Assembly: GCA_964476125.1 (NCBI GenBank)
Contig: CAYZAE010000003.1
Location: 25,804 to 89,803, forward strand
Direction of reading: 5' to 3'
Length of the DNA stretch: 64,000 bases
Source: an uncultured Verrucomicrobiota bacterium
Lineage (GTDB): Bacteria; Verrucomicrobiota; Verrucomicrobiia; Limisphaerales; CAIMTB01
The stretch's first letter is position 1, and the number at the start of each line of letters is the position of its first letter. Under the pieces are notes generated by a model. It was given only the letters and a program-made list of their open reading frames with translations, had not been told where the DNA came from and ran no database searches. This document shows positions 36,936 to 49,968 of the stretch, in pieces. The translations under genes were made by a program, and so were the position numbers.

Positions 36936-37346
36936 GTGGAAGAAGTTCTCAAAACAGATTTGTTGTACGTCGCCGCCTTCTGTCTCGGCGGACTGGTCTT
37001 CGCGGTCGGGCCCTTCGTGGCGGTTTTCCTCCTTTCCGCACGCCGGACCCGGGCTTACGCGAACAAGACGGATCAGGCGGTCGAATGCGGCATGGAACCG
37101 ATCGGCGACGCCTGGATCCGGTACAGCGCTGTTTACTATCTCTACGCGCTCGTCTTTGTCGCCTTCGCGGTGGACGTCCTTTACCTGATCCCCGTGGCCA
37201 TCGTTTACGACCGGGTGTTCCCGATCCGGGACCTGGTCGAGGTGCTTCTCTTTGTTGGGATTCTTTCGCTGGTGATCGTCTACGCCTGGAAGAAAGGGGT
37301 TTTTCAATGGAATCAAAAGAACAGCCGGGATGCGGTTGCCAGGTGA
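36936..37346 (+). CDS. nuoA: NADH-quinone oxidoreductase subunit A
   Basis: This is a three-helix protein with YECGMEP-like [11 protein letters not shown] and [20 protein letters not shown]. The start is GTG as given in the track. Confidence 0.9.
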
Positions 37347-37939
37347 GCGGCGGGTCGCCCCAAGCGCCCGCCGCCACCACCCCCGCGTCCGTCAGCACGG
37401 ACGCCGCCGGAATCGCGCATCCGGTCGAATCAGGGGGGGCTTCGGAGGTTTCCCCGGATTGTTCGTCGATCGTCCGCTTCGCCAAACTGGATGAACTTCT
37501 CGCCCTCGGCCGGGCGAATTCGCTCTGGCCACTGACCTTCGGGCTGGCGTGCTGCGCGATCGAGATGATGGCGGCGGGCGCCTCCCGCTTCGATATCTCC
37601 CGCTTCGGGGCCGAGGTCTTCCGTCCTTCGCCGCGGCAGGCGGATGTGATGATCGTTGCGGGGACCATCAACCGGAAGATGGCCCAGGCCGTGAAGACCC
37701 TTTACGACCAGATGCCCGAGCCCAAGTGGGTGATTGCCATGGGCAACTGCGCGATCTCCGGCGGCCCGTTCGTTTTTCCCGGTCAGTACGCCGTGGTGGA
37801 GGGGGTGGACAAGTTGTTCCCGGTGGATGTCTACGTCCCCGGATGCCCGCCCCGGCCGGAGGCGCTGATCGAGGGCATTCTTGCGCTGGAGGAAAAGATC
37901 ACCGGCAAACGCCGCTGGCCGAGGGTGAAACCCCAATGA
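37307..37939 (+). CDS. nuoB: NADH-quinone oxidoreductase subunit B (carries the N2 cluster) with a low-complexity N-terminal extension
   Basis: Motifs are [18 protein letters not shown] and [12 protein letters not shown] 37307 has AAAGGGG upstream. An alternative GTG start at 37343 would give a GTGA overlap with the nuoA stop. Confidence 0.93.
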
Positions 37940-38496
37940 CGCCGACGCCCACACTCGAGGCCCTGCACATGGCGTTCACCGAGCTTCTGGCGCCCGGCAC
38001 GGAGGCCGCTGTATCTCCCGCATCGGACCTGGCGACGGCGGGATCGGAGTCCGCCGGGAGTCTGGTTGGGGTTGTCGCGCCGGCATCAGCGACGTCGCCG
38101 TGCCAGTTGACCGATCCCAGGAAGAAGGGCTGGCATCTGGATGTCCGGGTGTCGCCGGAGCAGGTGGTGGAGGCGGCCCGGTTGGTCGACCGGCAGGGTT
38201 TTGCGATCGACACCGTGACTGGAGTGGACTGGCTGGCGGCCGGTGAGATGGAGGTGGTGTACGATTTCTTCCACCCGACCCTCCCGCTCCGGATTGTGAT
38301 CCGGACCCGGGTTCCTCGGTCCAAACCCGAGGTCCCGACGATTTCGGAGGTGTTTCCGGGAGCCAACTGGCACGAGCGGGAGACGCACGATTTCTTCGGG
38401 ATTGTGTTTTTGGGGCATCCGGATCTTTCGCCCTTGCTGCTGCCCGAGGACGCCGACTTTCACCCGTTGAGAAAGGATTTCCCCGGTGTTACTTGA
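37936..38496 (+). CDS. nuoC: NADH-quinone oxidoreductase subunit C
   Basis: It overlaps nuoB by ATGA. Matching segments are [20 protein letters not shown] and [27 protein letters not shown]. Confidence 0.9.
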
Positions 38497-39613
38497 GAAA
38501 ACCAGCGGGGTGAAGGTCGGGGACAACGAGACGTTTGTCCTGAACCTGGGGCCGCAGCATCCGGCGACGCATGGGGTTCTCCGGGTCAAGCTGACGATGG
38601 ACGGGGAGTACATCAACCGGGCGGAGCCGGTGCCCGGGTACATCCATCGGATGCACGAGAAGATGGGGGAGAACCGGACCTGGGCGCAGTTTCTGCCGAA
38701 CACGAGCCGCATCGACTACCTTTCGGCGATGACCTACACGCACGCCTATGTGGCGGCGGTGGAGCGGGCGGCCGGGATCGAGGTGCCGCTCCGGGCGGAG
38801 TATCTGCGGGTCATCACTTCCGAACTGAACCGGGTCTCGAGTCACCTGGTCTGGTTCGGGGCGTTCCTTCTCGATCTCGGGGGATTCACGCCGCTGCTGT
38901 ACGCCTTCGACGACCGCGAGAAGATCCTGGACCTGCTCGAGAGTGTGACCGGCGCCCGGCTGACCTACTGTTATTACCGCTTTGGCGGACTCTACAACGA
39001 CGTCGAGCCCGAGTTTCTCTCCGGCACGCTGGATTTCGTGAAGTACATGGGGCCTCGGCTGGACATGTACCGGCAGTTGGTGACGGACAACATCATTCTG
39101 AAGAAACGGCTGGAGGGCGTGGGCCCGATCGACGCGGAGATGTGCCGTCGGTATGGCGCCACCGGTCCGGTGATCCGCGGCGCCGGGGTGCCGTGCGATG
39201 TGAGACGGGTGGAGCCGTACTCGATCTATCCCGAGTTGGATTTTGAGATTCCGGTGTTTCCCGAGGGGGACTGCATGGCGCGGTATCTGGTCCGCATGGA
39301 GGAGATCCGCCAGAGCCTGAGAATCATCGAGCAAGCCATTGGAAAGCTCCCCGAGGGGCCGGTCCAGTCCAAGGTTCCGCGGTCGGTGAAGGTGCCGGCC
39401 GGCGACTATTATTTCGCCGTGGAGGCCGCGCGCGGCCGGTTTGCGGTGCGCATCGTGAGCGACGGGAAGGAGATCCCGTACCGCGTGAAACTCCGGACGC
39501 CCTCGTTTTCAAATCTCAGCCTCTTTGAGGAAGCCAGTCGCGGGATGATGCTGCCCGACGCGCTGGCCCTGATGGGCACGCTGGACCTTGTGATTCCCGA
39601 CATTGACCGCTGA
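38486..39613 (+). CDS. nuoD: NADH-quinone oxidoreductase subunit D
   Basis: Matching segments are LNLGPQHPATHGVLRV, RIDYLSAM, GATGPVIRGAGVPCDVRR, and the C-terminal LDLVIPDIDR. The GTG start overlaps the nuoC end. Confidence 0.93.
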   Translation: MLLEKTSGVKVGDNETFVLNLGPQHPATHGVLRVKLTMDGEYINRAEPVPGYIHRMHEKMGENRTWAQFLPNTSRIDYLSAMTYTHAYVAAVERAAGIEVPLRAEYLRVITSELNRVSSHLVWFGAFLLDLGGFTPLLYAFDDREKILDLLESVTGARLTYCYYRFGGLYNDVEPEFLSGTLDFVKYMGPRLDMYRQLVTDNIILKKRLEGVGPIDAEMCRRYGATGPVIRGAGVPCDVRRVEPYSIYPELDFEIPVFPEGDCMARYLVRMEEIRQSLRIIEQAIGKLPEGPVQSKVPRSVKVPAGDYYFAVEAARGRFAVRIVSDGKEIPYRVKLRTPSFSNLSLFEEASRGMMLPDALALMGTLDLVIPDIDR

Positions 39614-39631
39614 TTTTTCGCCGACACTCCC

Positions 39632-40642
39632 ATGTCCCTCCTGGCCTTCACTCTCAGCCTCCCGGAACCCTACCGGCTGATCGTGTTTCTGGCGGGCACG
39701 ATGGCCTTTGTGGGTTTGAACGCGGCGTATCTGGTGTGGGTGGAGCGGAAGGGGGCGGCGCGGTTTCAGCGGCGTCCGGGCCCGACCGAAGTGGGGCCGG
39801 CGGGGCTGCTTCAGCCGATTGCCGACGCCCTCAAGCTCCTTTCAAAGCAGGTGCATGTGCCTCCGGATGGGGATCGCATGCTGTTCCGTCTGGCGCCGGT
39901 GATGGTGATGGCGCCGGCGTTGATGTGCCTTTCGACGATTCCGTTCAGCGAGACGATCGCGGCGCGGAACCTGGATCTCGGGCTGGTGATGGTGTTTGCG
40001 TTCGGTTCGATCAACGTGATGGCGATCATGCTCGGGGGGTGGGCGTCGCGGAACAAGTACTCGATCATCTCCGCGGCGCGCATCGTCTCCCAGAACGTCG
40101 CCTACGAGATTCCGATGCTGCTGGTGGTGATCACCATCCTGATGATCACCGGCACCACCAACCTGCACACCATCGTGGAGCAGCAGAAGGGTGGGTTCTG
40201 GCACTGGAACATCCTGAAGCTCTCGGCCAACCCGCTGATGCCGGTAACCTTCCTGGTTTACTTCATCTGCATGCTGGCGGAGACGAACCGGGCGCCTTTC
40301 GACATGGCGGAGGCCGAGAGCGAACTCGTCGCCGGCGCCTTCACGGAATACGCCGGCATGGGTTTCGGGGTCTTCTTCATGGCCGAGTACGCCAACATCC
40401 TGGTCGGCTGCAGCCTGGCGACCGTCATCTTCTTCGGGGGCTGGGACAGTCCGATCGGGTTCCTCCCGGGCGTCGTGTGGTTCCTGCTGAAGCTCTACGC
40501 TCTCATTTTCACGGTGGTCTGGGTCCGGTGGACCTTTCCGCGCACCCAGTTCTACCGGTTGCTGAACCTCTCCTGGTACATCCTGATCCCGGTCTCCCTC
40601 GGGATCCTGGTCCTCACCAGCGTGATGCTGAAAATCTTCTGA
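39632..40642 (+). CDS. nuoH: NADH-quinone oxidoreductase subunit H
   Basis: It starts only 18 nt after the nuoD stop. Matching segments are VWVERKGAARFQRRPGP, LLQPIADALKL and AETNRAPFDMAEAESELVAG. Confidence 0.95.
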   Translation: MSLLAFTLSLPEPYRLIVFLAGTMAFVGLNAAYLVWVERKGAARFQRRPGPTEVGPAGLLQPIADALKLLSKQVHVPPDGDRMLFRLAPVMVMAPALMCLSTIPFSETIAARNLDLGLVMVFAFGSINVMAIMLGGWASRNKYSIISAARIVSQNVAYEIPMLLVVITILMITGTTNLHTIVEQQKGGFWHWNILKLSANPLMPVTFLVYFICMLAETNRAPFDMAEAESELVAGAFTEYAGMGFGVFFMAEYANILVGCSLATVIFFGGWDSPIGFLPGVVWFLLKLYALIFTVVWVRWTFPRTQFYRLLNLSWYILIPVSLGILVLTSVMLKIF

Positions 40643-40649
40643 TCCGGCC

Positions 40650-41096
40650 ATGAAACGAGCATTGATCGAATTGCTGAGCGGTCTCTGGAGCCTGGTGACG
40701 GGCATGCGGATCACCCTGCAGCAGTTCTTCAAGAAGGACGTCACCGTGCGCTATCCGCACGAGTCGCTGAAAATGCCCAAGCGTTTCCGCGGCCACGTCG
40801 TCCTGGTCCGGGACCCCGAATCCGGGAAATCCCTCTGCGTCGCCTGCAAGAGCTGCCAGAAGGCCTGCCCCAGCGAATGCATCGTCGTCGATGGCCTCAA
40901 ACGCGAGGGCGAGAAGAAGAAGTCGGTGACCGAGTTCACCGTGGATTTTACCAAGTGCAGCCTGTGCGGTTCATGCGTCGAGGTTTGCCCGGCGGACGCC
41001 CTGGAGTTTTCCAAGGACTACAACATGGCGAGCACCAGCAAGGATGCGTTCGTGCGGATCGACCTCGTGAAACGGATGGAGGAGGGGCCGAAATGA
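40650..41096 (+). CDS. nuoI: NADH-quinone oxidoreductase subunit I (2x[4Fe-4S])
   Basis: Two ferredoxin motifs are present, CVACKSCQKACP and CSLCGSCVEVCP, and the N-terminal part reads RYPHE. Confidence 0.93.
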   Translation: MKRALIELLSGLWSLVTGMRITLQQFFKKDVTVRYPHESLKMPKRFRGHVVLVRDPESGKSLCVACKSCQKACPSECIVVDGLKREGEKKKSVTEFTVDFTKCSLCGSCVEVCPADALEFSKDYNMASTSKDAFVRIDLVKRMEEGPK

Positions 41097-41629
41097 ACGA
41101 GTTTCCGGCAGCCAGGCTGATTCTTCACGCGGTTTTCGGCGCGTCGGTGGTGGTCACCCTTGCCGGAGCGCTGCTGGCGATTTCCACCGTCCGCATCATC
41201 CGGAGCGTGTGCGGACTGGCGCTGTGCTGCGTGGGGCTGGCCGGGGTGTACTACTTCCTGCACAGCCCGTTCCTGGCCCTGATGCAGATCCTCATCTACG
41301 TCGGTGCCGTGTGCATCACGATCATCTTCGCGGTGATGCTGGCGGAGCCGGATGAACCCGAGGAGCCGGCCTCGGAACGGCCCTCGAAGGCTTTGACGGT
41401 TCTTTCGTTGGGTGGCGGGGTGGCCCTGGCCTGGGCGGTGGCGGCCCTGGGATTGGGCGGATCCTGGAAGGTTCCGACGGCACCGCTGGCGAATGATGGA
41501 TCGCTGAAGGCGATCGGGATCGCCTTGCTGACCACCTACAGCGTGGCCTTCGAGACGATGTCGCTGGTCCTGCTGGTGGCGATCCTCGGAGCCCTGGCGG
41601 TGGCTCATGGCGGAAGGAGGCGCGAATGA
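41093..41629 (+). CDS. nuoJ: NADH-quinone oxidoreductase subunit J
   Basis: It overlaps nuoI by ATGA. The sequence FLALMQILIYVGAVCITIIFAVML and the hydrophobic profile are typical of subunit 6. Confidence 0.88.
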   Translation: MNEFPAARLILHAVFGASVVVTLAGALLAISTVRIIRSVCGLALCCVGLAGVYYFLHSPFLALMQILIYVGAVCITIIFAVMLAEPDEPEEPASERPSKALTVLSLGGGVALAWAVAALGLGGSWKVPTAPLANDGSLKAIGIALLTTYSVAFETMSLVLLVAILGALAVAHGGRRRE

Positions 41630-41952
41630 ACGGGGCGGCGATCTATGAGCAACCGGCGGTCTACCTGATTCTGGCGGCGATGCTGCTGGCCATCGGGCTG
41701 GTCGGGCTGATCCGCCGCCGGACCCTGATCGGGATGCTGATCTCGGGCGAGATCCTGTTCATCGCGGCGTCCCTCAATTTCCTGGCCGTGAACCGGTTCT
41801 TCTCTCCCGATCCTGCGGTGGGTCAGGTGTGCGTCCTGTTTCTCATGGGGCTGGCCGCCGCCGAGGTGTCGGTCGGGTTGAGCATCGTGATCGCGGTCTA
41901 CCGCAACTACCGATCGATCCGGTCGAGGGACCTCTCGGAAATGAACGGATAA
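41626..41952 (+). CDS. nuoK: NADH-quinone oxidoreductase subunit K
   Basis: It overlaps nuoJ by ATGA, with GGAAGGAGG upstream. It has three helices. Matching segments are MLISGEILFIAASLNF and AAAEVSVGLSIVIAVYRNY. Confidence 0.9.
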   Translation: MNGAAIYEQPAVYLILAAMLLAIGLVGLIRRRTLIGMLISGEILFIAASLNFLAVNRFFSPDPAVGQVCVLFLMGLAAAEVSVGLSIVIAVYRNYRSIRSRDLSEMNG

Positions 41953-41955
41953 ACC

Positions 41956-43428
41956 ATGCCGGTGCAGCACGACATCCGACTTTTGCTGGCGCTGCTGGCG
42001 CCCCTCGCCGGCGCGGGTCTGGTCATGGCGACCGGGCGCCGTCCCAACGTCCGCGAAGCCTGCTCCTTCCTGTCCGCCGTCGTCTTGTTCGGGCTGACCG
42101 CCTCCCTGATCCCGGAGGTCCGGGCCGGGCACACCCTCGGGTACACCGTGTTCGAGATGCTGCCGGGACTTGCCGTTCGGCTGCGGGCGGATGCGCTGTC
42201 GATGATCTTCGCCGTCTCGGCGTCGTTTCTTTGGATCCTCGCGGTGTCGTATTCGGCGGGGTACATGCGCGGCCTCAAGGAGCATGCGCAGACCCGTTTC
42301 AACGCGTGTTTTGCGCTCGCGCTTTTCGGGGCGATCGGATGCGCGTTCGCGGACAACCTTCTGACGCTCTACCTGTTTTACGAGATCGTTAGCGTCTGCA
42401 CCTACCCGCTGGTGGCGCATCATCAGGATGCGGAAGGGTATGAGGGCGGCCTCAAGTACATGGTCTACCTGACCACGACCGCGAAGGCCCTGGTCCTGCC
42501 GGCCATGGCCATGGTTTACGTGCTCACCGGAACGCTCGATTTCGCCCACAATTCCCACGCGGGCATCCTCCCGGCCACCGCCAGTGCGGGCGTCGTCACG
42601 GTCCTCTACGTCTGTTTCCTGCTGGGGTTCGCCAAGAATGGAATCATGCCGTTCCATCACTGGCTGCCGGGAGCCATGGTCGCCCCGACGCCCGTCAGCG
42701 CGCTGCTGCATGCCGTCGCGGTGGTGAAGGTGGGTGTGTTCTCGACGGTGCGCGTGATGCTGTACGTGTTCGGCACGGAACGGATGCAGGCGCTGAACCT
42801 CGGCATTCCGACGGCGTGGTTCGTCTCGATCACCATTCTTGTGGCTTCGGTGATTGCGCTGACCAAGGACAACCTCAAGTCCCGCCTCGCGTATTCCACG
42901 GTCAGCCAGCTGTCCTACATCATTCTGGGTGTGGCCCTGCTCACGCCGCGGGGCATCGAGGGCGGTTTGGTGCACATGGCGAATCATGCCTTTGCCAAGA
43001 TCACGTTGTTCTTCTGTGCCGGGGCGATCTACGTGGCCACCCACCGGAAGAACATCTCGGAGATGAGCGGGCTGGGTCGTGCCATGCCGTTCACTTTCGG
43101 GGCCTTCGCCGTGGCGTCCCTGGGCATGATCGGGGCCCCGCCGGTCGCCGGTTTCGTGACCAAGTGGAACCTTCTTCTGGGGGCGGCGGATGCGGGATCC
43201 ATCGGTCTCGTTTGCGTGCTGCTGCTGAGCACGTTGTTGAACGCGGCGTATTTCGTGCCGGTGGTGTACACCGCGTTTTTCGGGAAGGCCGCGGACGACC
43301 ACGGGCATCCGCCCCGGGAGGCGCCCCTGGCGATGGTGGTGCCGCTGACCCTGACCGCGGTGCTCTCGGTGGTGTTCGGGTTTTATCCGGATCTGTTCAT
43401 GGACTTCACCCGTGCGGTGCTGAAATGA
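41956..43428 (+). CDS. Extra antiporter-like (Mrp/NuoL-core type) proton-conducting membrane subunit, 490 aa, with no lateral helix
   Basis: The TM5 Glu context is LYLFYEIVSV. The TM7 Lys context is FAKNGIMPFHHWLPGAMVAPTPVSALLHAVAVVKVGVF, and the APTPVSAL-H motif is the one I associate with NuoL/MrpA. The length is too short to include a NuoL C-terminal helix. Confidence 0.85.
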   Translation: MPVQHDIRLLLALLAPLAGAGLVMATGRRPNVREACSFLSAVVLFGLTASLIPEVRAGHTLGYTVFEMLPGLAVRLRADALSMIFAVSASFLWILAVSYSAGYMRGLKEHAQTRFNACFALALFGAIGCAFADNLLTLYLFYEIVSVCTYPLVAHHQDAEGYEGGLKYMVYLTTTAKALVLPAMAMVYVLTGTLDFAHNSHAGILPATASAGVVTVLYVCFLLGFAKNGIMPFHHWLPGAMVAPTPVSALLHAVAVVKVGVFSTVRVMLYVFGTERMQALNLGIPTAWFVSITILVASVIALTKDNLKSRLAYSTVSQLSYIILGVALLTPRGIEGGLVHMANHAFAKITLFFCAGAIYVATHRKNISEMSGLGRAMPFTFGAFAVASLGMIGAPPVAGFVTKWNLLLGAADAGSIGLVCVLLLSTLLNAAYFVPVVYTAFFGKAADDHGHPPREAPLAMVVPLTLTAVLSVVFGFYPDLFMDFTRAVLK

Positions 43429-43685
43429 AGCTGCTGACCATCATTGAATTCCTGCGTCGCAACCTGAAGGCGGTGGTGCGCGCGTCGTGGGTGGTACTCG
43501 CGCTCCTGGTGGTGGTGGATGCCCTTCCGGGGGTGGTGGACAAGGAGCATGCCCACACCGCGGTGGAGCGGTGGCCGGGTTTCTGGGCGGTGTTCGGGCT
43601 GGTGGGTTGCTCCTTTCTGATCGTGGCTTCGAAGGCATTTGGTCATCTGGGAATCATGAAGCGGGAGGACTACTACGATGAGTGA
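43425..43685 (+). CDS. Unassigned 86-aa two-helix membrane protein embedded in the pump-subunit gene block
   Basis: It overlaps the upstream gene by ATGA and the downstream gene by 8 nt. The sequence is MKLLTIIEFLRRNLKAVVRASWVVLALLVVVDALPG...WPGFWAVFGLVGCSFLIVASKAFGHL...KREDYYDE. I recognise no family. Confidence 0.65.
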   Translation: MKLLTIIEFLRRNLKAVVRASWVVLALLVVVDALPGVVDKEHAHTAVERWPGFWAVFGLVGCSFLIVASKAFGHLGIMKREDYYDE

Positions 43686-45462
43686 CCTGTGGGTCCATCC
43701 CTCGGCGATCCTGCTTCTGGGTGCGGCGGGTCTGCCGCTGATTCCGGCCCGGGCGAAGCGGATCTGGCTGCTGCTCATCCCGGTCCTCGCCTTTGTGCGC
43801 ACGGTTGGGCTGGTGAAGGGGGTTTTTGGGCAGGTGACCGTGCTGGATTGGACCCTGGTGTTCGGCCGGGTGGATGGGTTGAGCCAGGTGTTCGGGTACA
43901 TCATGGCGCTGATGGCGGTGGTTGGGACGCTGTACGGGCTTCACGTTCGTGAGGATGCCCAGCACATGGTGGCCTGGACCTATGTGGCGGGTTCGCTGGG
44001 GGCCATTTACGCGGGCGATTACCTGACCTTGTTCGTTTTCTGGGAGTTGATGGCGTTGTCCTCGGTGTTCCTGGTCTGGTTTCGAAGGCGTCCGGAGTCG
44101 GGGCCGGTGGGGCTCCGTTATTTCCTGGTTCACACGGCGGGGGGGTTGGCGCTGCTGGCGGGCATTGTGCTGCAGGCGGGGCAGGCGGGGGGCAGTCTGG
44201 CGTTCGGGGCGGTGGATGTGCATCGGATGACTCCCGCGACGTGGCTGATACTCTCGGGATTCCTGCTGAATGCGGCGGTGCCGCCGCTGCATGCCTGGCT
44301 GCCGGATGCGTATGGCGAGGCCACCTTCAATGGCTCCGTCTTCCTGTGTGCGTTCACGACGAAGACGGCGGTGTACGCGCTTTGCCGCGCCTTTCCGGGC
44401 CTGGAGATCCTGGTGCCGTTGGGGGTGGCGATGGCGTTGTACGGCGTGGTGTATGCGGTATTGGAGAACGACTGCCGCCGGTTGCTCGCGTATCACATCA
44501 TCAGCCAGGTGGGTTACATGGTGGCGGGGGTGGGGATCGGGACGGAGATGGCGATCAACGGCGCCTGCGCCCATGCCTTCGCCCACATCCTCTACAAGGG
44601 CCTGCTCTTCATGGGGTGCGGTTCGATCCTGCACATGACCGGCCGCAGCAAGTTCACGGAGCTCGGCGGATTATACGCCCGGATGCCCTGGACGTTTCTT
44701 TTCACCCTGGTCGGGGGCCTTTCTATTTCCGCGTTTCCGTTGTTCAGCGGGTTTGTCAGCAAGTCGATGATTGTCGCCGCCGGATTCGAACAGCACCGGC
44801 AGACGGCCTCCTTCCTGTTGATGCTGGCCTCGGTGGGTACGTTCCTGCACACCGGTTTGAAGGTTCCCTATTTTCTCTGGTTCGGCCGACGCAACTGCAG
44901 TGACGAGACCTGGGAACGCGCCAAGGAACCGCCCTGGAACATGATGGTGGCGATGGCGGCGGCGGCGGTTCTCTGTGTCGGGATCGGATGCTACACGCCC
45001 TATCTCTACCGGATGCTGCCCCACCCGGTGGAATATCATCCCTACACGGCGTATCACGTCTCCGAGACGCTCCAGATCCTGCTCTTTACGGCGGTCGGAT
45101 TCTTTCTCCTGCTTCGGAAACTTCAGCCGACGCCGACGATCAGCGTGGATCTCGATTGGTTTTACCGGAAGGGCGCGCGGTGGCTGATGCGGATGGCGCG
45201 CGGGCCGGTCCGTCGCGTCGATGACGGGGTGGGGGAGGTCTATCGGGCCGGCGGCCTGGATCCCCTCATGCGGGCGTCGCGGTCGATTGGGCTTTTTGAC
45301 GGCCGGGTGATTGACGGGGCGGTGGACGGTATTGCGACGACGATCCGGGCCGTGGGCGGGCGGTTGCGGTTTCTCCAGCGGGGCGCGATGCAGGAGAGCC
45401 TGGCGGTGGCGCTGGGTGTGGCGGTGGTCCTGCTTCTGGTGGGCCTGGTGCTGATGCGGTAA
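43678..45462 (+). CDS. nuoL: NuoL-like antiporter-type subunit (594 aa) carrying the C-terminal lateral-helix segment
   Basis: The TM5 Glu context is LFVFWELMAL. The TM7 region is LLNAAVPPLHAWLPDAYGEATFNGSVF, with Asn where the other three subunits have Lys. The C-terminus GRVIDGAVDGIATTIRAVGGRLRFLQRGAMQESLAVALGVAVVLLLVGLVL resembles the NuoL amphipathic helix plus final TM (V-DG-V-G ... LQ-G pattern). Confidence 0.8.
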   Translation: MSDLWVHPSAILLLGAAGLPLIPARAKRIWLLLIPVLAFVRTVGLVKGVFGQVTVLDWTLVFGRVDGLSQVFGYIMALMAVVGTLYGLHVREDAQHMVAWTYVAGSLGAIYAGDYLTLFVFWELMALSSVFLVWFRRRPESGPVGLRYFLVHTAGGLALLAGIVLQAGQAGGSLAFGAVDVHRMTPATWLILSGFLLNAAVPPLHAWLPDAYGEATFNGSVFLCAFTTKTAVYALCRAFPGLEILVPLGVAMALYGVVYAVLENDCRRLLAYHIISQVGYMVAGVGIGTEMAINGACAHAFAHILYKGLLFMGCGSILHMTGRSKFTELGGLYARMPWTFLFTLVGGLSISAFPLFSGFVSKSMIVAAGFEQHRQTASFLLMLASVGTFLHTGLKVPYFLWFGRRNCSDETWERAKEPPWNMMVAMAAAAVLCVGIGCYTPYLYRMLPHPVEYHPYTAYHVSETLQILLFTAVGFFLLLRKLQPTPTISVDLDWFYRKGARWLMRMARGPVRRVDDGVGEVYRAGGLDPLMRASRSIGLFDGRVIDGAVDGIATTIRAVGGRLRFLQRGAMQESLAVALGVAVVLLLVGLVLMR

Positions 45463-45490: not shown

Positions 45491-46993
45491 ATGACCCAAC
45501 TCACATCCGACGGTGGTTTTCCCCTGCTGAGCGTGCTGATCTTCGGCCCGCTGGCGGCGGCGCTGGTGGCGGCGCTGTTGCCTGGTGAACGCGGACTGCG
45601 CGCCTGGGCCCTGGCTTCGACGTCCGGGTTCGGACTCCTGTCGCTGGTCCTGCTGACCCGGTTTGATCCGGCGAAGACGGGGTTTCAGTGGGTGGAGCAG
45701 TCGGCGTGGATTCCGTGGTTGAAGATCGACTATGCGCTGGGGATCGATGGCATCAGTCTGGTTCTCATTCTGCTGACGGCGCTGATCTCGCCGTTGTGCG
45801 TGCTGGCGTCGTGGACGTACATCAAGGTCCGGGTCAGGGAGTTCATGGTGTGCCTGCTGGTGATGGAGGCGGCGATGGTGGGGGTGTTCAGTGCCCTGGA
45901 TTTCGTGCTCTTCTTCATGTTTTGGGAGGCGATGCTCATTCCGATGAGCCTGATGATCGGCGTGTGGGGCGGGCCGAAGCGGGTGTATGCGGCGGTGAAA
46001 TTCTTCGTGTACACCATGGCTGGGTCGGTGCTCCTGCTGGTGGCGATCGTGGCGCTTCGGTTGAAGACGGGAAGCTTCAGCATTCCGGGCATGATGGGGC
46101 GGACCTATCCCGTGGAGTTTCAGTGCTGGGTGTTCGCGGCCTTTTTCATTTCGTTCGCCATCAAGGTCCCGATGTTCCCGTTTCACACCTGGCTGCCGTC
46201 GGCCCACGTGGAGGCGCCGACGGCGGGCAGTGTAATTCTGGCGAGCGTGCTGTTGAAGATGGGGACTTACGGATTCCTGCGGTTCTCCCTGCCGATCGTT
46301 CCCTATGCGGCGAAGCTTTTCGCGCCGTGGCTGATGGCGTTGTCGGTGGTGGCCATTGTGTACGGCGGATTGGCGGCCCTGGCTCAGACGGACCTGAAGA
46401 AGCTGGTGGCCTATTCGAGCGTGGGCCACATGGGTTTTGCGACCCTGGGCATTTTCAGCCTGACGCGGGCGGGGTTGGAGGGGGCGACGCTGGTGATGAT
46501 CAATCACGGGGTGACGACCGGGGCGCTGTTCGTGGCGGTTGGTTTTCTCTATGAACGCCTGCACACCCGCGATCTCGGCGCGGCGGCCGGCGTGGGGAAG
46601 GTGATCCCGGTGTACACCGGTTTTCTGGGGCTGTTCTGCCTTTCCTCGATGGCTTTTCCGGGGACGAACAGTTTCGTGGGTGAGTTTCTGGTGCTGGCCG
46701 GCGGGTTGTCGGTCTCGAAGGTTCTGGTGATCTGCGCCGTCCCGGGGGTGGTGGCCGCGGCTGCCTACAACCTGAGAATGCTCCAGCGCGTGGCCTACGG
46801 CGGCACTGCGAATCCCCGGCACGAAGGCGTGAAGGATCTTGGCTGGCGCGAGATCGCGACCCTGGCCCCGCTGCTGGTGCTGGTCCTGTGGATCGGGCTG
46901 CAACCCAAGCCGCTGATGAATCTGATCGAGACCGGGGTCATGCAGATCGTCGGCCAGGTGGCCAACGCCGAGGCGACCATTCCGGGACCCTAG
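45491..46993 (+). CDS. nuoM: NADH-quinone oxidoreductase subunit M
   Basis: Matching segments are GIDGISLVLILLTALI, FFMFWEAMLIPMSLMIGVWGG and FAIKVPMFPFHTWLPSAHVEAPTAGSVILASVLLKMGTYG. Confidence 0.92.
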   Translation: MTQLTSDGGFPLLSVLIFGPLAAALVAALLPGERGLRAWALASTSGFGLLSLVLLTRFDPAKTGFQWVEQSAWIPWLKIDYALGIDGISLVLILLTALISPLCVLASWTYIKVRVREFMVCLLVMEAAMVGVFSALDFVLFFMFWEAMLIPMSLMIGVWGGPKRVYAAVKFFVYTMAGSVLLLVAIVALRLKTGSFSIPGMMGRTYPVEFQCWVFAAFFISFAIKVPMFPFHTWLPSAHVEAPTAGSVILASVLLKMGTYGFLRFSLPIVPYAAKLFAPWLMALSVVAIVYGGLAALAQTDLKKLVAYSSVGHMGFATLGIFSLTRAGLEGATLVMINHGVTTGALFVAVGFLYERLHTRDLGAAAGVGKVIPVYTGFLGLFCLSSMAFPGTNSFVGEFLVLAGGLSVSKVLVICAVPGVVAAAAYNLRMLQRVAYGGTANPRHEGVKDLGWREIATLAPLLVLVLWIGLQPKPLMNLIETGVMQIVGQVANAEATIPGP

Positions 46994-46999
46994 AAACGA

Positions 47000-48442
47000 G
47001 TGACGATGTTCCACCCAGGCGCATTCCTTCCCGAATTGGTGCTGCTGGCCGGCGCGCTGGCCATCTTCCTGACCACGCTGCGGGCGTCGGACGGCCGGCT
47101 GGCCGGCCGGGTGACCCTTGGCGTGGCTGTGGCGACGCTGCTGGCCGCCGTGCTTGGGCTGAAGCAAGAGGCGCTGATGTTCGACGGGGCCTATCGCGTC
47201 GACGCCTTTTCCCAGGGCCTGAAGCTGGTTTTTTCCGTGGGTTTCGTGCTGGTGTCGCTGCTGAGCGGCCGGCTTGGGGACATTCGTGAGGATGTGCGGA
47301 GCGAGTACTTTCTCTTTCTGACCTTCAGCGTTCTCGGCTTCGAGTTGCTGGCGAGCTGCATTGAATTGATGGCCTTGGTGGTGGCCCTTGAGCTGGCTTC
47401 CTTCCCGCTCTTTCTCGCGGTGGCGCTGCGGCGTGAACGGGCGGGGCAGCGCCGGCAGCTGGAGTCGGCGATGAAGTACGTGATGTTCGGGGTGGCGGCG
47501 AACGGCATCATGTTCTTCGGGTTGAGCTACCTCTTCGGACTGACCGGAACCACGTCGCTGCCATTGATGGCCGAGAGGCTGCGACCGGTGATGACCACGC
47601 CCCTGGCTGTGGCCGGTCTGCTGATGGCGCTGGCCGGGGTCTGGTACAAGCTGGCGGTTTTTCCGTTCCACTTTTGGACGCCGGATGTCTACCAGGGGGC
47701 TTCGAACGAAACGGCGGGTTGGGTGGCTTCGTTGCCGAAGCTTGGCGCGGTGGTGGTGTTTTATCGGTTCATGGCCATGGCGGCCCCCGATGGCCGGGCG
47801 GTCCCGATGGTTCTGGCGGTGCTGGCCGGGGCCTCGATGCTCTACGGCAATCTTCTGGCCCTGGGTCAGACCGACTTCAAGCGCATGCTCGGGTTCTCGG
47901 GCATCGCCCATGCCGGTTATGCGCTCCTGGGTTTTGTGTCCCTGGATGTCTCCGGCCATGCGGCGGCCCTGTATTACATGACCGCTTACATGGCGATGGT
48001 GCTGGCCTGCTTCACGGTCATCAGCCGGGTGTCCGCCGATGGGGTGAACGTGGCGATTTCGGATCTCGCCGGATTGCACCGCCGCTCGCCGTTGCTTGCG
48101 ATCACCCTGATGGCTGGCGTGTTTGGCCTGGCCGGGATTCCGCCCCTGGCGGGTTTCATGGGCAAACTGGCGCTGTTCACGGCGGCGCTCCGACAAGGTC
48201 ATCTGGCTCTCGTCATCCTGGCGGTCCTGAATGCGGCGGTGGCGATCTACTATTACCTCTCGGTGGTCCGCGAAGTTGTGTTTGGGGATCCGGGATCCCG
48301 GCCGGCGATCGTTCTGGATCCGCCGACCCGCATGCTTTGTGCATTTCTGGTGCTGATCATCGTGGTGCTCGGCGTGATGCCGGGACCGCTGTTTGAGGCC
48401 ATCGGTCAGGCGCTCGGGGCGGCGGCCCTCCCGGGACGTTGA
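47000..48442 (+). CDS. nuoN: NADH-quinone oxidoreductase subunit N
   Basis: The start is GTG. Matching segments are LVVALELASFPLF, WYKLAVFPFHFWTPDVYQGASNETAGWVASLPKLG and LLGFSGIAHAGY. Confidence 0.9.
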   Translation: MTMFHPGAFLPELVLLAGALAIFLTTLRASDGRLAGRVTLGVAVATLLAAVLGLKQEALMFDGAYRVDAFSQGLKLVFSVGFVLVSLLSGRLGDIREDVRSEYFLFLTFSVLGFELLASCIELMALVVALELASFPLFLAVALRRERAGQRRQLESAMKYVMFGVAANGIMFFGLSYLFGLTGTTSLPLMAERLRPVMTTPLAVAGLLMALAGVWYKLAVFPFHFWTPDVYQGASNETAGWVASLPKLGAVVVFYRFMAMAAPDGRAVPMVLAVLAGASMLYGNLLALGQTDFKRMLGFSGIAHAGYALLGFVSLDVSGHAAALYYMTAYMAMVLACFTVISRVSADGVNVAISDLAGLHRRSPLLAITLMAGVFGLAGIPPLAGFMGKLALFTAALRQGHLALVILAVLNAAVAIYYYLSVVREVVFGDPGSRPAIVLDPPTRMLCAFLVLIIVVLGVMPGPLFEAIGQALGAAALPGR

Positions 48443-48567: not shown

Positions 48568-49968
48568 ATGAAAGATTCCCCTTTTCCGACGGAGGGTGTT
48601 CGGCACGCGTGGTCCGAGTTACCGGCCGAGGACCTTCCGAGACGCCCGGTGAGCGAGCGGGTCGTCGATTTTCGCGAAGTGCACGAGGCCTTCACGCCGG
48701 AGGCCGCCCAGGCCCAGGCGGAACGTTGCGTCCAGTGCGCGCATCCGGGCTGTGTGGAGGAGTGTCCCGTCGGCAGTCCCATTGAGGAATGGATGCAGCT
48801 GGTGGCCGAGGGGCGCTTCCAGGAGGCGGCCCGGATTGCGCGGGAGTCGAATGCCATTCCCGAAATCTGCGCCCGGCTATGTCCCCGGGATCATCTGTGC
48901 GAGCGGGGATGTGTTCTGGGCGGGCCGTCGGAGCCGGTGTGCATCGGGGCGCTCGAGCAGTTTCTGCAGGACTATTCGCTGGGAGTGAGCGAGGCGGAGG
49001 ACCGTTTGGCGGAACCGAACGGTCGGCGGATCGCGGTGGTGGGGGCGGGGGCCGCCGGTTTGGCTTGCGCCGACGAACTCTCGCGCCGCGGCTATTCGGT
49101 GACTCTTTTTGATTCCGGGACCGATCCCGGGGGCGGACTGGTGCGCGGGACCGCGTCGTTCCGGCTTGATCCCGCGGTGGTGCAGCGACGGGTGGTCATC
49201 CTGCGCGAGCGGGGGGTGGAGTTTCGCCTCGATGCCCCGCTGGGCGAGTCCGTGTCGCTCGCCGGACTGAGGAAGGAGTTCGATGCGGTGTTCGTTGGAC
49301 TTGAGGCGCGTCAGGCGCGTCTGTTGCAGGTGCCGGGGGCCCACTTGAATGGGGTGACCGACGGTCTGGCCTTGATGGCCCGGATCACTTCGGGGGTGCG
49401 GCCGGATTGGAACAATCGCCGGGTTGTCGTGGTCGGGGACGAGGATCTCGCGATTGATTGCGCGCGATCCGCGGTGCGTTGCGGAGCGGCGTCGGTGATC
49501 GTGATTTCGGCGGCAGGCCAGGCCGACATGGGGTGCAGCCGCCGGGATTTCGACTGCGCGAGGGACGAAGGGGTCCGTTTTGTCTGGGAGCAGGTTCCGG
49601 TTTCGATTCACGGCGATGCCGCGCGGCAGGTTACGGAAGTCCAGACGGTGCGGGTGGCCCGGCTTCCGATGGAGGACGGCCGGGGTTCCCGGATGGGCCT
49701 GGTGCCGGGGACGGAGGAGACCCTGGGTGCGGACATCGTGGTGGTGGCGCTGGGGTTTGACCGTCAGGCGGTGGGTTTGCCAGGCGATTTCGTGGAGCTC
49801 GGGGCGGATGGGTTGGGGGAAGTGCTGGTGGATCGGCGTCAGATGACGCATCTGCCTGGCGTGTTTGCGGGCGGGGAAGTGGTCCGAGGACCCTGCGATG
49901 TGGTTCACGCCATTCGCGATGCCCGCCAGGCTGCCATTGGGATCGGACAGTATCTGGGGATCGGGTGA
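48568..49968 (+). CDS. GltD-like NAD(P)H-dependent Fe-S flavoprotein (glutamate synthase small-subunit / NfnB / PreT family)
   Basis: The N-terminal Fe-S cysteine pattern is AERCVQCAHPGCVEECP ... ARLCPRDHLCERGC. The dinucleotide folds are RIAVVGAGAAGLACADEL and VVVVGDEDLAIDCARSA, and the C-terminal part reads PGVFAGGE. Confidence 0.88.
   Translation: MKDSPFPTEGVRHAWSELPAEDLPRRPVSERVVDFREVHEAFTPEAAQAQAERCVQCAHPGCVEECPVGSPIEEWMQLVAEGRFQEAARIARESNAIPEICARLCPRDHLCERGCVLGGPSEPVCIGALEQFLQDYSLGVSEAEDRLAEPNGRRIAVVGAGAAGLACADELSRRGYSVTLFDSGTDPGGGLVRGTASFRLDPAVVQRRVVILRERGVEFRLDAPLGESVSLAGLRKEFDAVFVGLEARQARLLQVPGAHLNGVTDGLALMARITSGVRPDWNNRRVVVVGDEDLAIDCARSAVRCGAASVIVISAAGQADMGCSRRDFDCARDEGVRFVWEQVPVSIHGDAARQVTEVQTVRVARLPMEDGRGSRMGLVPGTEETLGADIVVVALGFDRQAVGLPGDFVELGADGLGEVLVDRRQMTHLPGVFAGGEVVRGPCDVVHAIRDARQAAIGIGQYLGIG

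Follow-up and report, generated by a model that had tools for sequence, protein, structure and literature searches.

The nuo operon described here raises the question of what has taken the place of NuoL in its membrane arm, and whether an antiporter-like subunit with asparagine at the conserved TM7 lysine position still moves protons. The window, which is the whole 64,000-nucleotide stretch of DNA analysed, carries the gene order A-B-C-D-H-I-J-K-D1-x-D2-M-N on the plus strand. The upstream genes nuoA, B, C, D, H, I, J and K (36936..41952), assigned from their open reading frames (ORFs) and from synteny with 80 loci, belong to the same operon, and nuoK matches PF00420 in the Pfam scan. According to the ORFs and family scans, nuoL is replaced between nuoK and nuoM/nuoN by two MrpD-like genes, D1 (MrpD1-like, 490 amino acids, 41956..43428) and D2 (MrpD2-like, 594 amino acids, 43678..45462), which enclose an ORF for a small membrane protein of 86 amino acids (43425..43685). 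This ORF overlaps D1 and D2 each by ATGA, and scans against Pfam and NCBIfam assigned its product to no family; 70 of the 80 loci have a homologue in the same place, flanked by D1 and D2. The block is followed by nuoM (45491-46993), whose product scores 595 bits against TIGR01972, and by nuoN (47000-48442), whose product scores 319.5 bits against TIGR01770, under the cut-off of 332.6. The order around D1/D2 is identical in the 80 related loci. No nuoE, nuoF or nuoG is found among the ORFs of the nuo operon in the window. The best explanation of the locus as a whole, and in our judgement the likely one, is that this EFG-less operon would encode a membrane arm with four antiporter-like subunits. 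A search of the same genome for a second copy of D1 or D2 found none, the other PF00361 genes being at most 35% identical. Those genes comprise a canonical nuoLMN (contig C9), an Mrp-like set (C58) and pairs (C67 and C8).

D1 has a core of the NuoL/MrpA type and is devoid of the lateral helix. Its product carries the PF00361 domain in the Pfam scan and scores 805.3 bits against NCBIfam NF006236 (equivalog cut-off 663), remaining below the NuoL cut-offs (211.6 versus 407.5 for TIGR01974 and 227 versus 556 for NF005141). The alignment shows that E143, K227, H252, K258, H340, H344, K348 and K403 are retained, and these key residues are invariant across 72-75 orthologues. The D1 translation contains FAKNGIMPFHHWLP and APTPVSALLHAVAVVKVG. 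In the tree, D1 is the sister of E. coli NuoL, and it possesses the helix-VIII His motif, which is specific to MrpA and NuoL (PMC4938563). Both observations agree with the first-pass annotation, which had recognized a NuoL/MrpA motif in this protein.

D2 belongs to a different family. It scores 750.8 bits against NCBIfam NF009310 (PRK12668, "Na+/H+ antiporter subunit D"; equivalog cut-off 564) and falls short of the NuoL cut-offs (154.7 versus 407.5 for TIGR01974 and 157.7 versus 556 for NF005141). Its best PDB sequence match is MbsH' (6u8y_X, E 2e-38, phmmer) and its best fold match is MrpA (7qru_A, TMq 0.75), with NuoL chains among the top fold matches. The AlphaFold2 model (mean pLDDT 86) contains a broken TM7, and D2 shows the canonical features of an antiporter-like subunit, namely PF00361 (E 5e-45), the TM8 Lys and the TM12 Lys. 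The C-terminal part of the model is composed of TM15, a 73-residue lateral helix (HL; residues 494-566, 45157-45375, delimited from the predicted secondary structure and a C-terminal comparison) and the TM16 anchor (residues 571-593, 45388-45456), HL and TM16 together covering 45157..45456. On this model D2 is the predicted bearer of the lateral clamp helix, as had been proposed for the protein lacking the TM7 Lys.

D1, the 86-residue ORF and D2 together form a conserved three-gene, Mrp-derived block replacing nuoL. The same block is located within Mrp-type antiporter operons, which also contain the homologue of the 86-residue protein and in which D2 is accompanied by MnhE, F, G, B and MrpC. 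Because the block is present in true Mrp operons and also replaces NuoL in green complex I, it is an imported module rather than a split NuoL. The first-pass annotation had described the features of NuoL as divided between two proteins. The distribution itself stands, the NuoL-like core motifs being absent from D2 and located in D1, and the lateral helix residing in the protein without the TM7 Lys. The notion of a division is misleading, however, since the block is conserved and occurs in Mrp operons, and both proteins score far under the NuoL cut-offs; the reading of the operon is corrected here to that of an imported Mrp module.

The residue in question is Asn198 of D2 (codon AAT, 44269-44271). 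The D2 translation contains LLNAAVPPLHAWLP and EATFNGSVFLCA, and those of NuoM and NuoN contain FAIKVPMFPFHTWLP and WYKLAVFPFHFWTP, respectively. In a MAFFT alignment with E. coli NuoL, NuoM and NuoN, N198 shares a column with K229, K234 and K217, and BLASTP against E. coli NuoL pairs N198 with K229 likewise. In phmmer matches, N198 lies opposite a Lys both in MbsH' (6u8y_X), where it is the TM7 Lys, and in Dietzia MrpA (7d3u_A), and opposite E219 in MbsH (6u8y_H). As the three methods yield one pairing, a register shift placing Lys or Glu at this position is ruled out, and the assignment of Asn to the TM7 position by the first-pass annotation is borne out, together with its observation that Lys is kept in the other three subunits: the quoted strings occur in the ORF translations, and in the alignment NuoM combines the TM7 Lys with a TM12 Glu and NuoN with a TM12 Lys. 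In the AlphaFold2 model, N198 ends TM7a (residues 186-199), immediately ahead of the helix break. The helix-break end of TM7a is the site of the Lys in known subunits.

Asn is found in 78 of 79 orthologues, which originate from four or more phyla and were drawn from the 80 genome loci at identities down to 51%; the column is invariant in alignment A2. Beyond this set, representatives were taken as the best-scoring 150 of 1,038 clusters matching D2 at E <= 1e-30 in a 50%-identity library. At 34-67% identity, 109 of the 146 with a residue at the column possess Asn (N 109, K 27, S 5, H 3), and the Lys-type (K198) sequences form one nested clade in the tree. The codon AAT is one base from AAA or AAG, which would suit an artefact of alignment or sequencing or a change confined to the strain; given the concordant alignments and the retention of Asn in orthologues and family representatives, this explanation has practically no probability left.

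The change of TM7 does not stand alone. In T. thermophilus Nqo12, the partner of TM5 Glu132 is TM6 Arg163, and that of TM7 Lys216 is TM6 Asp166 (PMC11496545). The corresponding NuoL network, composed of TM5 Glu with TM7 Lys, TM6 Arg/Asp and TM8 His, is not reproduced in D2, which has E123, N198, T153, G156 and C224 instead. Glu123 (TM5, equivalent to NuoL E144; codon GAG, 44044..44046) is invariant in alignments A1 and A2. On TM6, T153 occupies the position of R175 in the alignment of NuoL T174/R175, G156 that of D178 (MAFFT and BLASTP), and His152 (codon CAC, 44131..44133), the proposed stand-in base for the absent Lys, is aligned beside R175, one residue off. His152 is invariant in A2, and 78 of 79 orthologues carry the whole triad E123/H152/N198. 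The combination N198/H152 occurs in 101 sequences and K198/Q152 in 23; His152 is found in 101 of the 103 full-length Asn-type sequences, and Gln in the Lys-type. Many further columns differ between the two clades, and the K/Q versus N/H covariation is essentially a single evolutionary event. Glu123 is kept in every one of the 136 sequences in which position 152 or 198 holds a base, and is lost in two of the three with no base at either position, in two separate lineages (Fisher p = 3e-4 with no phylogenetic correction, resting on three metagenome sequences).

The remaining proton path of D2 is conserved. E123, K229 (TM8), H299, H303, K307 (TM11) and K362 (TM12) are invariant in orthologues at 51-80% identity, and the proton-path residues are near-invariant among the representatives at 34-67% identity. 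At the TM8 His position of L-type subunits, the D2 family has Cys or Ser (C224 in D2). The first-pass annotation had considered the 594-residue subunit possibly pump-impaired and had pointed to the TM8 and TM12 positions as a check; the invariance of K229 and K362, the other unchanged channel residues and the covarying TM6 His all speak against impairment. Judged by these conserved residues, D2 is probably a functional variant and not a defective pump.

The observed alignment, conservation, block distribution and covariation are best explained, as a whole, by a Glu-His switch in a D2 that still moves protons, within a block standing in place of nuoL; we regard this combined reading as probable. 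The loss of the canonical TM5-Glu/TM7-Lys ion pair would be ancient in the D2 family, with Lys changing to Asn and the NuoL-type TM6 Asp to Gly, while the TM5 Glu was kept and a His was gained one turn-level away on TM6. His152 may contact Glu123 and take over the role of the Lys functionally. The interface switch would then consist of a Glu-His pair, or of Glu and the TM12 Lys of the neighbour, in place of Glu-Lys, and would gain a lower-pKa base. Since the proton path is conserved and the TM6 His covaries with Asn, this would be a modified switch, not a dead one, and D2 would translocate protons. More tentatively, and with the balance somewhat against it, a large and ancient family of lateral-helix subunits, found in Mrp antiporters and in four-/five-pump variants of complex I, may use the TM5-Glu/TM6-His switch in place of the Glu/Lys pair.

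Alternatively, the absent Lys could be offset across the subunit interface, Glu123 pairing with the TM12 Lys of a neighbour and His152 being incidental; K403 of D1 would be the partner if D1 is proximal. K403 is invariant, D1 and D2 are always found together and are fused in one 1090-residue protein, the TM12 flank of D1 reads GFV(T/S)KW in Asn-type and GSWSKW in Lys-type blocks, and in the domino model protons hop between TM12 and the TM5 of the neighbour (PMC10212512). This arrangement nevertheless leaves unexplained why His152 accompanies Asn and Gln accompanies Lys, and why the Glu disappears once neither base is there; moreover, two orders of D1 and D2 are possible, and we consider it unlikely. 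Clearly less probable is that D2 serves as a pump-dead scaffold supplying the clamp helix while D1, NuoM and NuoN pump. The missing TM7 Lys and the replaced TM8 His would fit such a role, and the K229A mutation of E. coli NuoL severely reduces complex I activity (Nakamaru-Ogiso, as cited in PMC4938563), so that a Lys-less subunit could be genuinely weaker. A scaffold, however, would not conserve buried charges, the other channel residues are invariant across phyla, and the Mrp-type operons have only three antiporter-like subunits, D2 being among them. MbsH, with Glu at the TM7 site (E219), is still regarded as a pump (PMC7684303).

The Asn, His and Cys changes might instead shift the ion specificity, so that D2 would handle Na+ or K+ and not H+. 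The origin of the block in Mrp-type Na+(K+)/H+ antiporter operons, the NCBI family name and the proposal of helix VIII as an ion-specificity site (PMC4938563) are in line with this idea, but the Na+ path of the solved Mrp, MBH and MBS complexes has been attributed to the small-subunit module and not to the antiporter-like subunits (PMC8165549), the Lys/His/Lys proton wire of D2 is intact, and no cation-binding acidic cluster is seen in D2. We therefore consider a change of ion the least probable of these functional alternatives.

The length of the lateral helix bears on the order of the pumps. The stretch that leads from the FYRK motif, where the lateral-helix region opens, to TM16 measures 76 residues in D2, compared with 45-53 in Mrp-type relatives with three pump subunits and 70 in one three-pump nuo operon (L090). 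TM15 and TM16 are separated by 93 residues in D2, versus 83 in the NuoL of the same genome and approximately 80 in E. coli. These lengths indicate that the helix in most cases spans one pump less than the total. In D2 the span fits either order, N-M-D2-D1, or N-M-D1-D2 if the anchoring of TM16 falls one subunit short. D1 is favoured as the proximal subunit by the natural D1-D2 fusion and by the analogy with MbsH/MbsH', whereas the canonical helix length favours D2 adjoining NuoM.

Both the electrostatic-wave model (PMC11496545) and the domino/ND5-only model (PMC10212512) assign a TM5-Glu/TM7-Lys pair to "each" antiporter-like subunit. The D2 family is a widespread natural family without the TM7 Lys in which the other proton-path residues are strictly conserved, and the subunit concerned is the predicted clamp-helix bearer. 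If the Glu-His switch holds, nature has already mutated a pair that both coupling models treat as indispensable, with the Lys-type clade as control. The Asn/His clade and its Lys/Gln sister clade thus offer a comparative test of the purpose of the pair; lineages that lost all three residues provide a further comparison, and S. meliloti is a tractable host. A gate base of near-neutral pKa could ease reversal of the distal pump or drive at small redox spans, and would fit an EFG-less complex with extra pump subunits. To reckon five protons per cycle for the four pump subunits presupposes that D2 pumps like the others. The TM7 Asn was not found in the literature searched, whose papers on the rhizobial complex deal with gene content and helix length, and it is not covered by a 2025 survey of complex I genes; the residue-level variant appears to be undescribed in the papers searched.

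The design of the membrane arm, by comparison, is known from rhizobial green complex I (Degli Esposti & Martinez-Romero 2016, summarized in PMC9040806 and PMC7415380), where the names MrpD1 and MrpD2 are used for these proteins (PMC9040806). D2 shares 52-53% identity over 95% of its length with plasmid proteins of Sinorhizobium, Rhizobium and Ensifer, and the S. meliloti pSymA complex has the same local order nuoK-D1-small ORF-D2-nuoM-nuoN. In green complex I, two MrpD-like subunits likewise occupy the place of nuoL and the second carries an amphipathic helix (PMC9040806), as the window's MrpD2-like subunit is predicted to do. The rhizobial operon reads J-K-D1-x-D2-M-N-A-B-C-D-E-F and includes nuoE and nuoF, whereas the window differs in order and has no nuoEFG; because the whole-operon layouts differ, only the membrane-arm block is common to both.

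Similar architectures are found in other systems. In MBS from P. furiosus (PDB 6U8Y), MbsH' resembles D2 in being an antiporter-like subunit that possesses TM15-HL-TM16 and comes after a helix-less partner, MbsH, itself among the best matches of D1. Unlike D2, MbsH' keeps the TM7 Lys (K217), while E219 of MbsH demonstrates, like D2, that a residue other than Lys can occupy the TM7 site. Among the differences from the window complex, the helix in MBS spans two pumps only, and the sulfane-sulfur reductase arm of MBS sits at the opposite membrane-arm end. MrpA (Bacillus/Anoxybacillus/Dietzia) is the lateral-helix bearer of the Mrp array, similar to D2, but it retains the TM7 Lys and TM8 His and has a C-terminal (NuoJ-like) domain that D2 lacks. 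With NuoL/Nqo12/ND5, D2 shares the 16-TM architecture and a lateral helix of approximately 73 residues, and with NuoL the TM11 HxxxHxxxK motif and the TM12 Lys, whereas K229, R175, D178 and H254 of NuoL correspond to N, T, G and C in D2.

The plus strand of the window carries a single tightly packed operon running from nuoA to nuoN. The genes nuoA, B, C, D, H, I, J and K (36936-41952) are followed by a 490-aa antiporter-like protein (D1, 41956-43428), an 86-aa membrane ORF (43425-43685) that shares an ATGA overlap with either neighbour, and a 594-aa antiporter-like protein (D2, 43678-45462), which together take nuoL's place before nuoM (45491-46993) and nuoN (47000-48442). No nuoE, nuoF or nuoG is found among the window ORFs of this operon. 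Judged by its homologues, the window belongs to Verrucomicrobiota. A Pfam scan matches PF00361 in all four large antiporter-like subunits. In NCBIfam, D1 hits NF006236 (805 bits against a cut-off of 663) and D2 hits NF009310, "Na+/H+ antiporter subunit D" (751 bits against 564), and both lie far under the cut-offs of the NuoL models. Among solved structures, D1 is closest to MbhH, NdhF, NuoL and MbsH, and D2 is closest in sequence to MbsH' of the Pyrococcus MBS complex and in fold to MrpA.

A gltD-like gene (48568-49968, plus strand) lies downstream of nuoN. A gltD-like Fe-S flavoprotein gene, with 42-45% identity to that of the window, also adjoins the operon at nine related Verrucomicrobiota loci (L006, L007, L009, L010, L013, L015, L020, L045 and L074), either upstream of nuoA or downstream of nuoN; none occurs at the Thermodesulfobacteriota loci among the best 80 of the 526 loci described below. 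The genome itself (G000) holds 16 PF00361 matches, four of them in the window. Its contig C9 encodes a canonical nuoL(cut)-M-N, contig C58 an 824-aa MrpA-like protein clustered with three more antiporter-like genes, and contigs C67 (open frames of 681 and 645 aa) and C8 a pair each; the survey also names contig C279.

D2 bears an asparagine, Asn198 (codon AAT, 44269-44271, plus strand), at the conserved TM7 lysine site, as the first-pass annotation had proposed from peptides that are all present in the ORF translations. In the MAFFT alignment, Asn198 shares a column with K229 of NuoL, K234 of NuoM and K217 of NuoN from E. coli (reference sequences from NC_000913), with K227 of D1, and with the TM7 lysines of the window's NuoM and NuoN. 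BLASTP of D2 against NuoL gives the identical pairing, and phmmer concurs, placing Asn198 opposite Lys in MbsH' (6u8y_X) and Dietzia MrpA (7d3u_A) and opposite Glu in MbsH (6u8y_H). In an AlphaFold2 model of D2 (input of 52 orthologues, mean pLDDT 86), TM7 is broken into segments 186-199 and 207-214, so that Asn198 is predicted to sit at the helix break, the site of the lysine in known subunits.

The asparagine is a property of the family. One genome per species was scanned, and a relative is encoded at 526 loci; the 80 best of these belong to Verrucomicrobiota, Thermodesulfobacteriota, Gemmatimonadota, Gallionella and Syntrophorhabdus, and all 80 share the gene order nuoK-D1-small ORF-D2-nuoM-nuoN, apart from a few rearrangements. 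Of 79 D2 orthologues with 51-80% identity, 78 have Asn at position 198 and one has Ser. When 1.84 billion cluster representatives were searched, the full family gave 25,913 matches at E <= 1e-3, of which 1,038 reached E <= 1e-30. The best 150 of these (34-67% identity) have Asn at position 198 in 109 cases, followed by Lys (27), Ser (5), His (3), Ala (2) and Gly (1). In the phylogenetic tree, all D2-family members fall in one clade whose sister group comprises E. coli NuoL and D1; those with Lys make up a single subclade that arises within the Asn-bearing members. The alignments place neither Lys nor Glu at the TM7 site of D2, and the substitution is not specific to one strain; both objections to the original observation therefore fall away.

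The remaining key residues of D2 are retained. Glu123 in TM5 corresponds to NuoL E144, K229 in TM8 to the central Lys of NuoM/N and MrpA, H299, H303 and K307 in TM11 to NuoL H334, H338 and K342, and K362 in TM12 to NuoL K399; these six residues show no variation among orthologues. The exception is C224 in TM8, which replaces NuoL H254. This position is Ser in most D2-family members and Cys in 65 of 79 orthologues, the window's nearest relatives, and the His of the TM7-loop PxH-x-W motif (position 205) is Ser in 28 family representatives. D1 retains E143, K227, H252, K258, H340, H344, K348 and K403 in the alignment, and these eight residues are likewise unvarying among its orthologues. As first noted, D1 combines the TM7 Lys with the helix-VIII motif PTPVSALLHA, whose conservation is limited to MrpA and NuoL (PMC4938563).

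D2 had also been suspected of being impaired as a pump, and the sequence evidence argues against this: six charged or protonatable positions in its interior are fixed across phyla, which is not expected of a dead pump, and a TM6 His accompanies the loss of the Lys. All aligned D2 orthologues have His at position 152, as do 101 of the 103 Asn-type sequences of full length; 23 of the 27 Lys-type sequences have Gln there. Glu123 is kept in all 136 representatives that carry His, Lys or Arg as a base at 152 or 198. Three sequences are baseless at both positions. In two of these, which come from different clades, the Glu is missing as well (P0138: N198, Q152, E123N; P0253: A198, L152, E123V); with three baseless sequences in the comparison and kinship ignored, Fisher's test gives p = 3e-4. 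In T. thermophilus Nqo12, simulations and structures describe the gate as a double pair, Glu132(TM5)/Arg163(TM6) and Asp166(TM6)/Lys216(TM7) (PMC11496545); that study also assayed Nqo12/13 in proteoliposomes. By both MAFFT and BLASTP, His152 aligns one residue before the NuoL Arg (E. coli T174/R175), and Gly156 aligns with the NuoL Asp (D178). D2 therefore resembles an L-type subunit in which both members of the Asp-Lys pair were lost together, replaced by Gly and Asn, and a Glu-base pair was retained through the TM6 His. MbsH, whose TM7 site is occupied by Glu, continues to be regarded as a pump and offers a precedent for such variation (PMC7684303). We consider D2 quite probably an active proton-transfer subunit; whether His152 functionally replaces the TM7 Lys is an even call.

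Protons would pass through D2 via K229, H299/H303/K307 and K362, as in other antiporter-like subunits. Glu123 with His152 would form the interface switch sensing the neighbouring subunit, and Asn198 may line the TM7 break as a polar residue without charge. Under the domino model, a proton moves back and forth between the TM5 and TM7 sites and then passes to TM8 (PMC10212512). The second site in D2 would then be the His, or the TM12 Lys of the neighbour, and a His gate, with a pKa much below that of Lys, would alter the strength of the switch bias.

The block of D1, small ORF and D2 predates its use in complex I. It closes an Mrp-type operon of the order MnhE-MrpF-MnhG-MbhD/E-MnhB-MrpC-D-D1-99aa-D2, and other Mrp-type operons end MrpC-D-D1-small-D2; such settings host Asn-type and Lys-type D2 alike. 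The first-pass annotation read the NuoL features as split between the two proteins. The core motif is indeed in D1 and the helix in D2, but the occurrence in Mrp operons and the matches to MbsH' and MrpA make the block better described as an imported pair derived from Mrp, similar to MbsH/MbsH' or MrpD/MrpA, that was swapped in for NuoL. At three loci (L031, L032 and L034; Thermodesulfobacteriota, Desulfobulbus, Ca. Desulfobia), the order is nuoK-nuoM-D1-small-D2-nuoN, with 63-70% identity to the window in D1/D2 and only 32-42% in NuoD, H, K and N; it looks as if the block moved between unrelated nuo operons. The small ORF (69-99 aa) is present in both nuo-type and Mrp-type operons (window 43425-43685; L089 3450-3671; L090 6382-6594; L091 9667-9966; L082 550-840; L087 383-595). 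It has a hydrophobic core followed by an acidic C-terminal tail ending PEDYY/REDYYD-like, and has no family match in Pfam or NCBIfam.

The lateral helix of D2 spans 73 residues (494-566) in the AlphaFold2 model and is followed by TM16. The TM15-TM16 spacing is 93 residues, compared with 83 in the genome's own NuoL and ~80 in E. coli, so the helix is about equal in length to that of canonical NuoL. The helices of Mrp-type D2 from three-pump operons are ~25-30 residues shorter, and D2 of Manganitrophus, from a five-pump operon, has 26 residues more (PMC9040806). The span is therefore, in most cases, one pump short of the total. An exception is L090, an ENA metagenome contig with nuoA-K (split nuoJ), D1-small-D2 and one further antiporter-like gene: its pumps total three, its D2 helix region is nonetheless long (~70 residues, proline-rich), and it agrees poorly with either of the two arrangements that follow. 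The helix lengths fit the order N-M-D2-D1, in which D2 occupies the position of NuoL and D1 is an addition at the tip; they also fit N-M-D1-D2, provided that the TM16 anchor falls one subunit short. A natural fusion (P0192, 1090 aa), whose D1 part and Asn-type D2 part share 44% and 38% identity with the window's proteins, joins them by a linker of ~25 residues and lacks the small ORF; it argues that D1 and D2 adjoin each other directly and that the C-terminus of D1 lies close to the N-terminus of D2. In MBS and Mrp, the helix-bearing subunit is the distal one. This precedent and the direction of the fusion favour, by analogy, a proximal D1.

Previous work has already described the MrpD1/MrpD2 block and the four-pump architecture. 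In the literature searched (the founding 2016 paper outside it), we found no description of a family-wide TM7 Asn in the helix-bearing subunit, nor of its covariation with the TM6 His and the joint loss of the TM5 Glu. The D2 family offers a naturally occurring test of what the Glu-Lys pair does and is no new machine. [quoted passage not shown] S. meliloti pSymA has the order nuoJ-K-"cation/H+ antiporter D family"-hypothetical-"Na+/H+ antiporter D"-nuoM-nuoN-A-B-C-D-E-F. The operon order differs from that of the window, and pSymA includes the NADH module that the window lacks, whereas the membrane-arm block is common to both.
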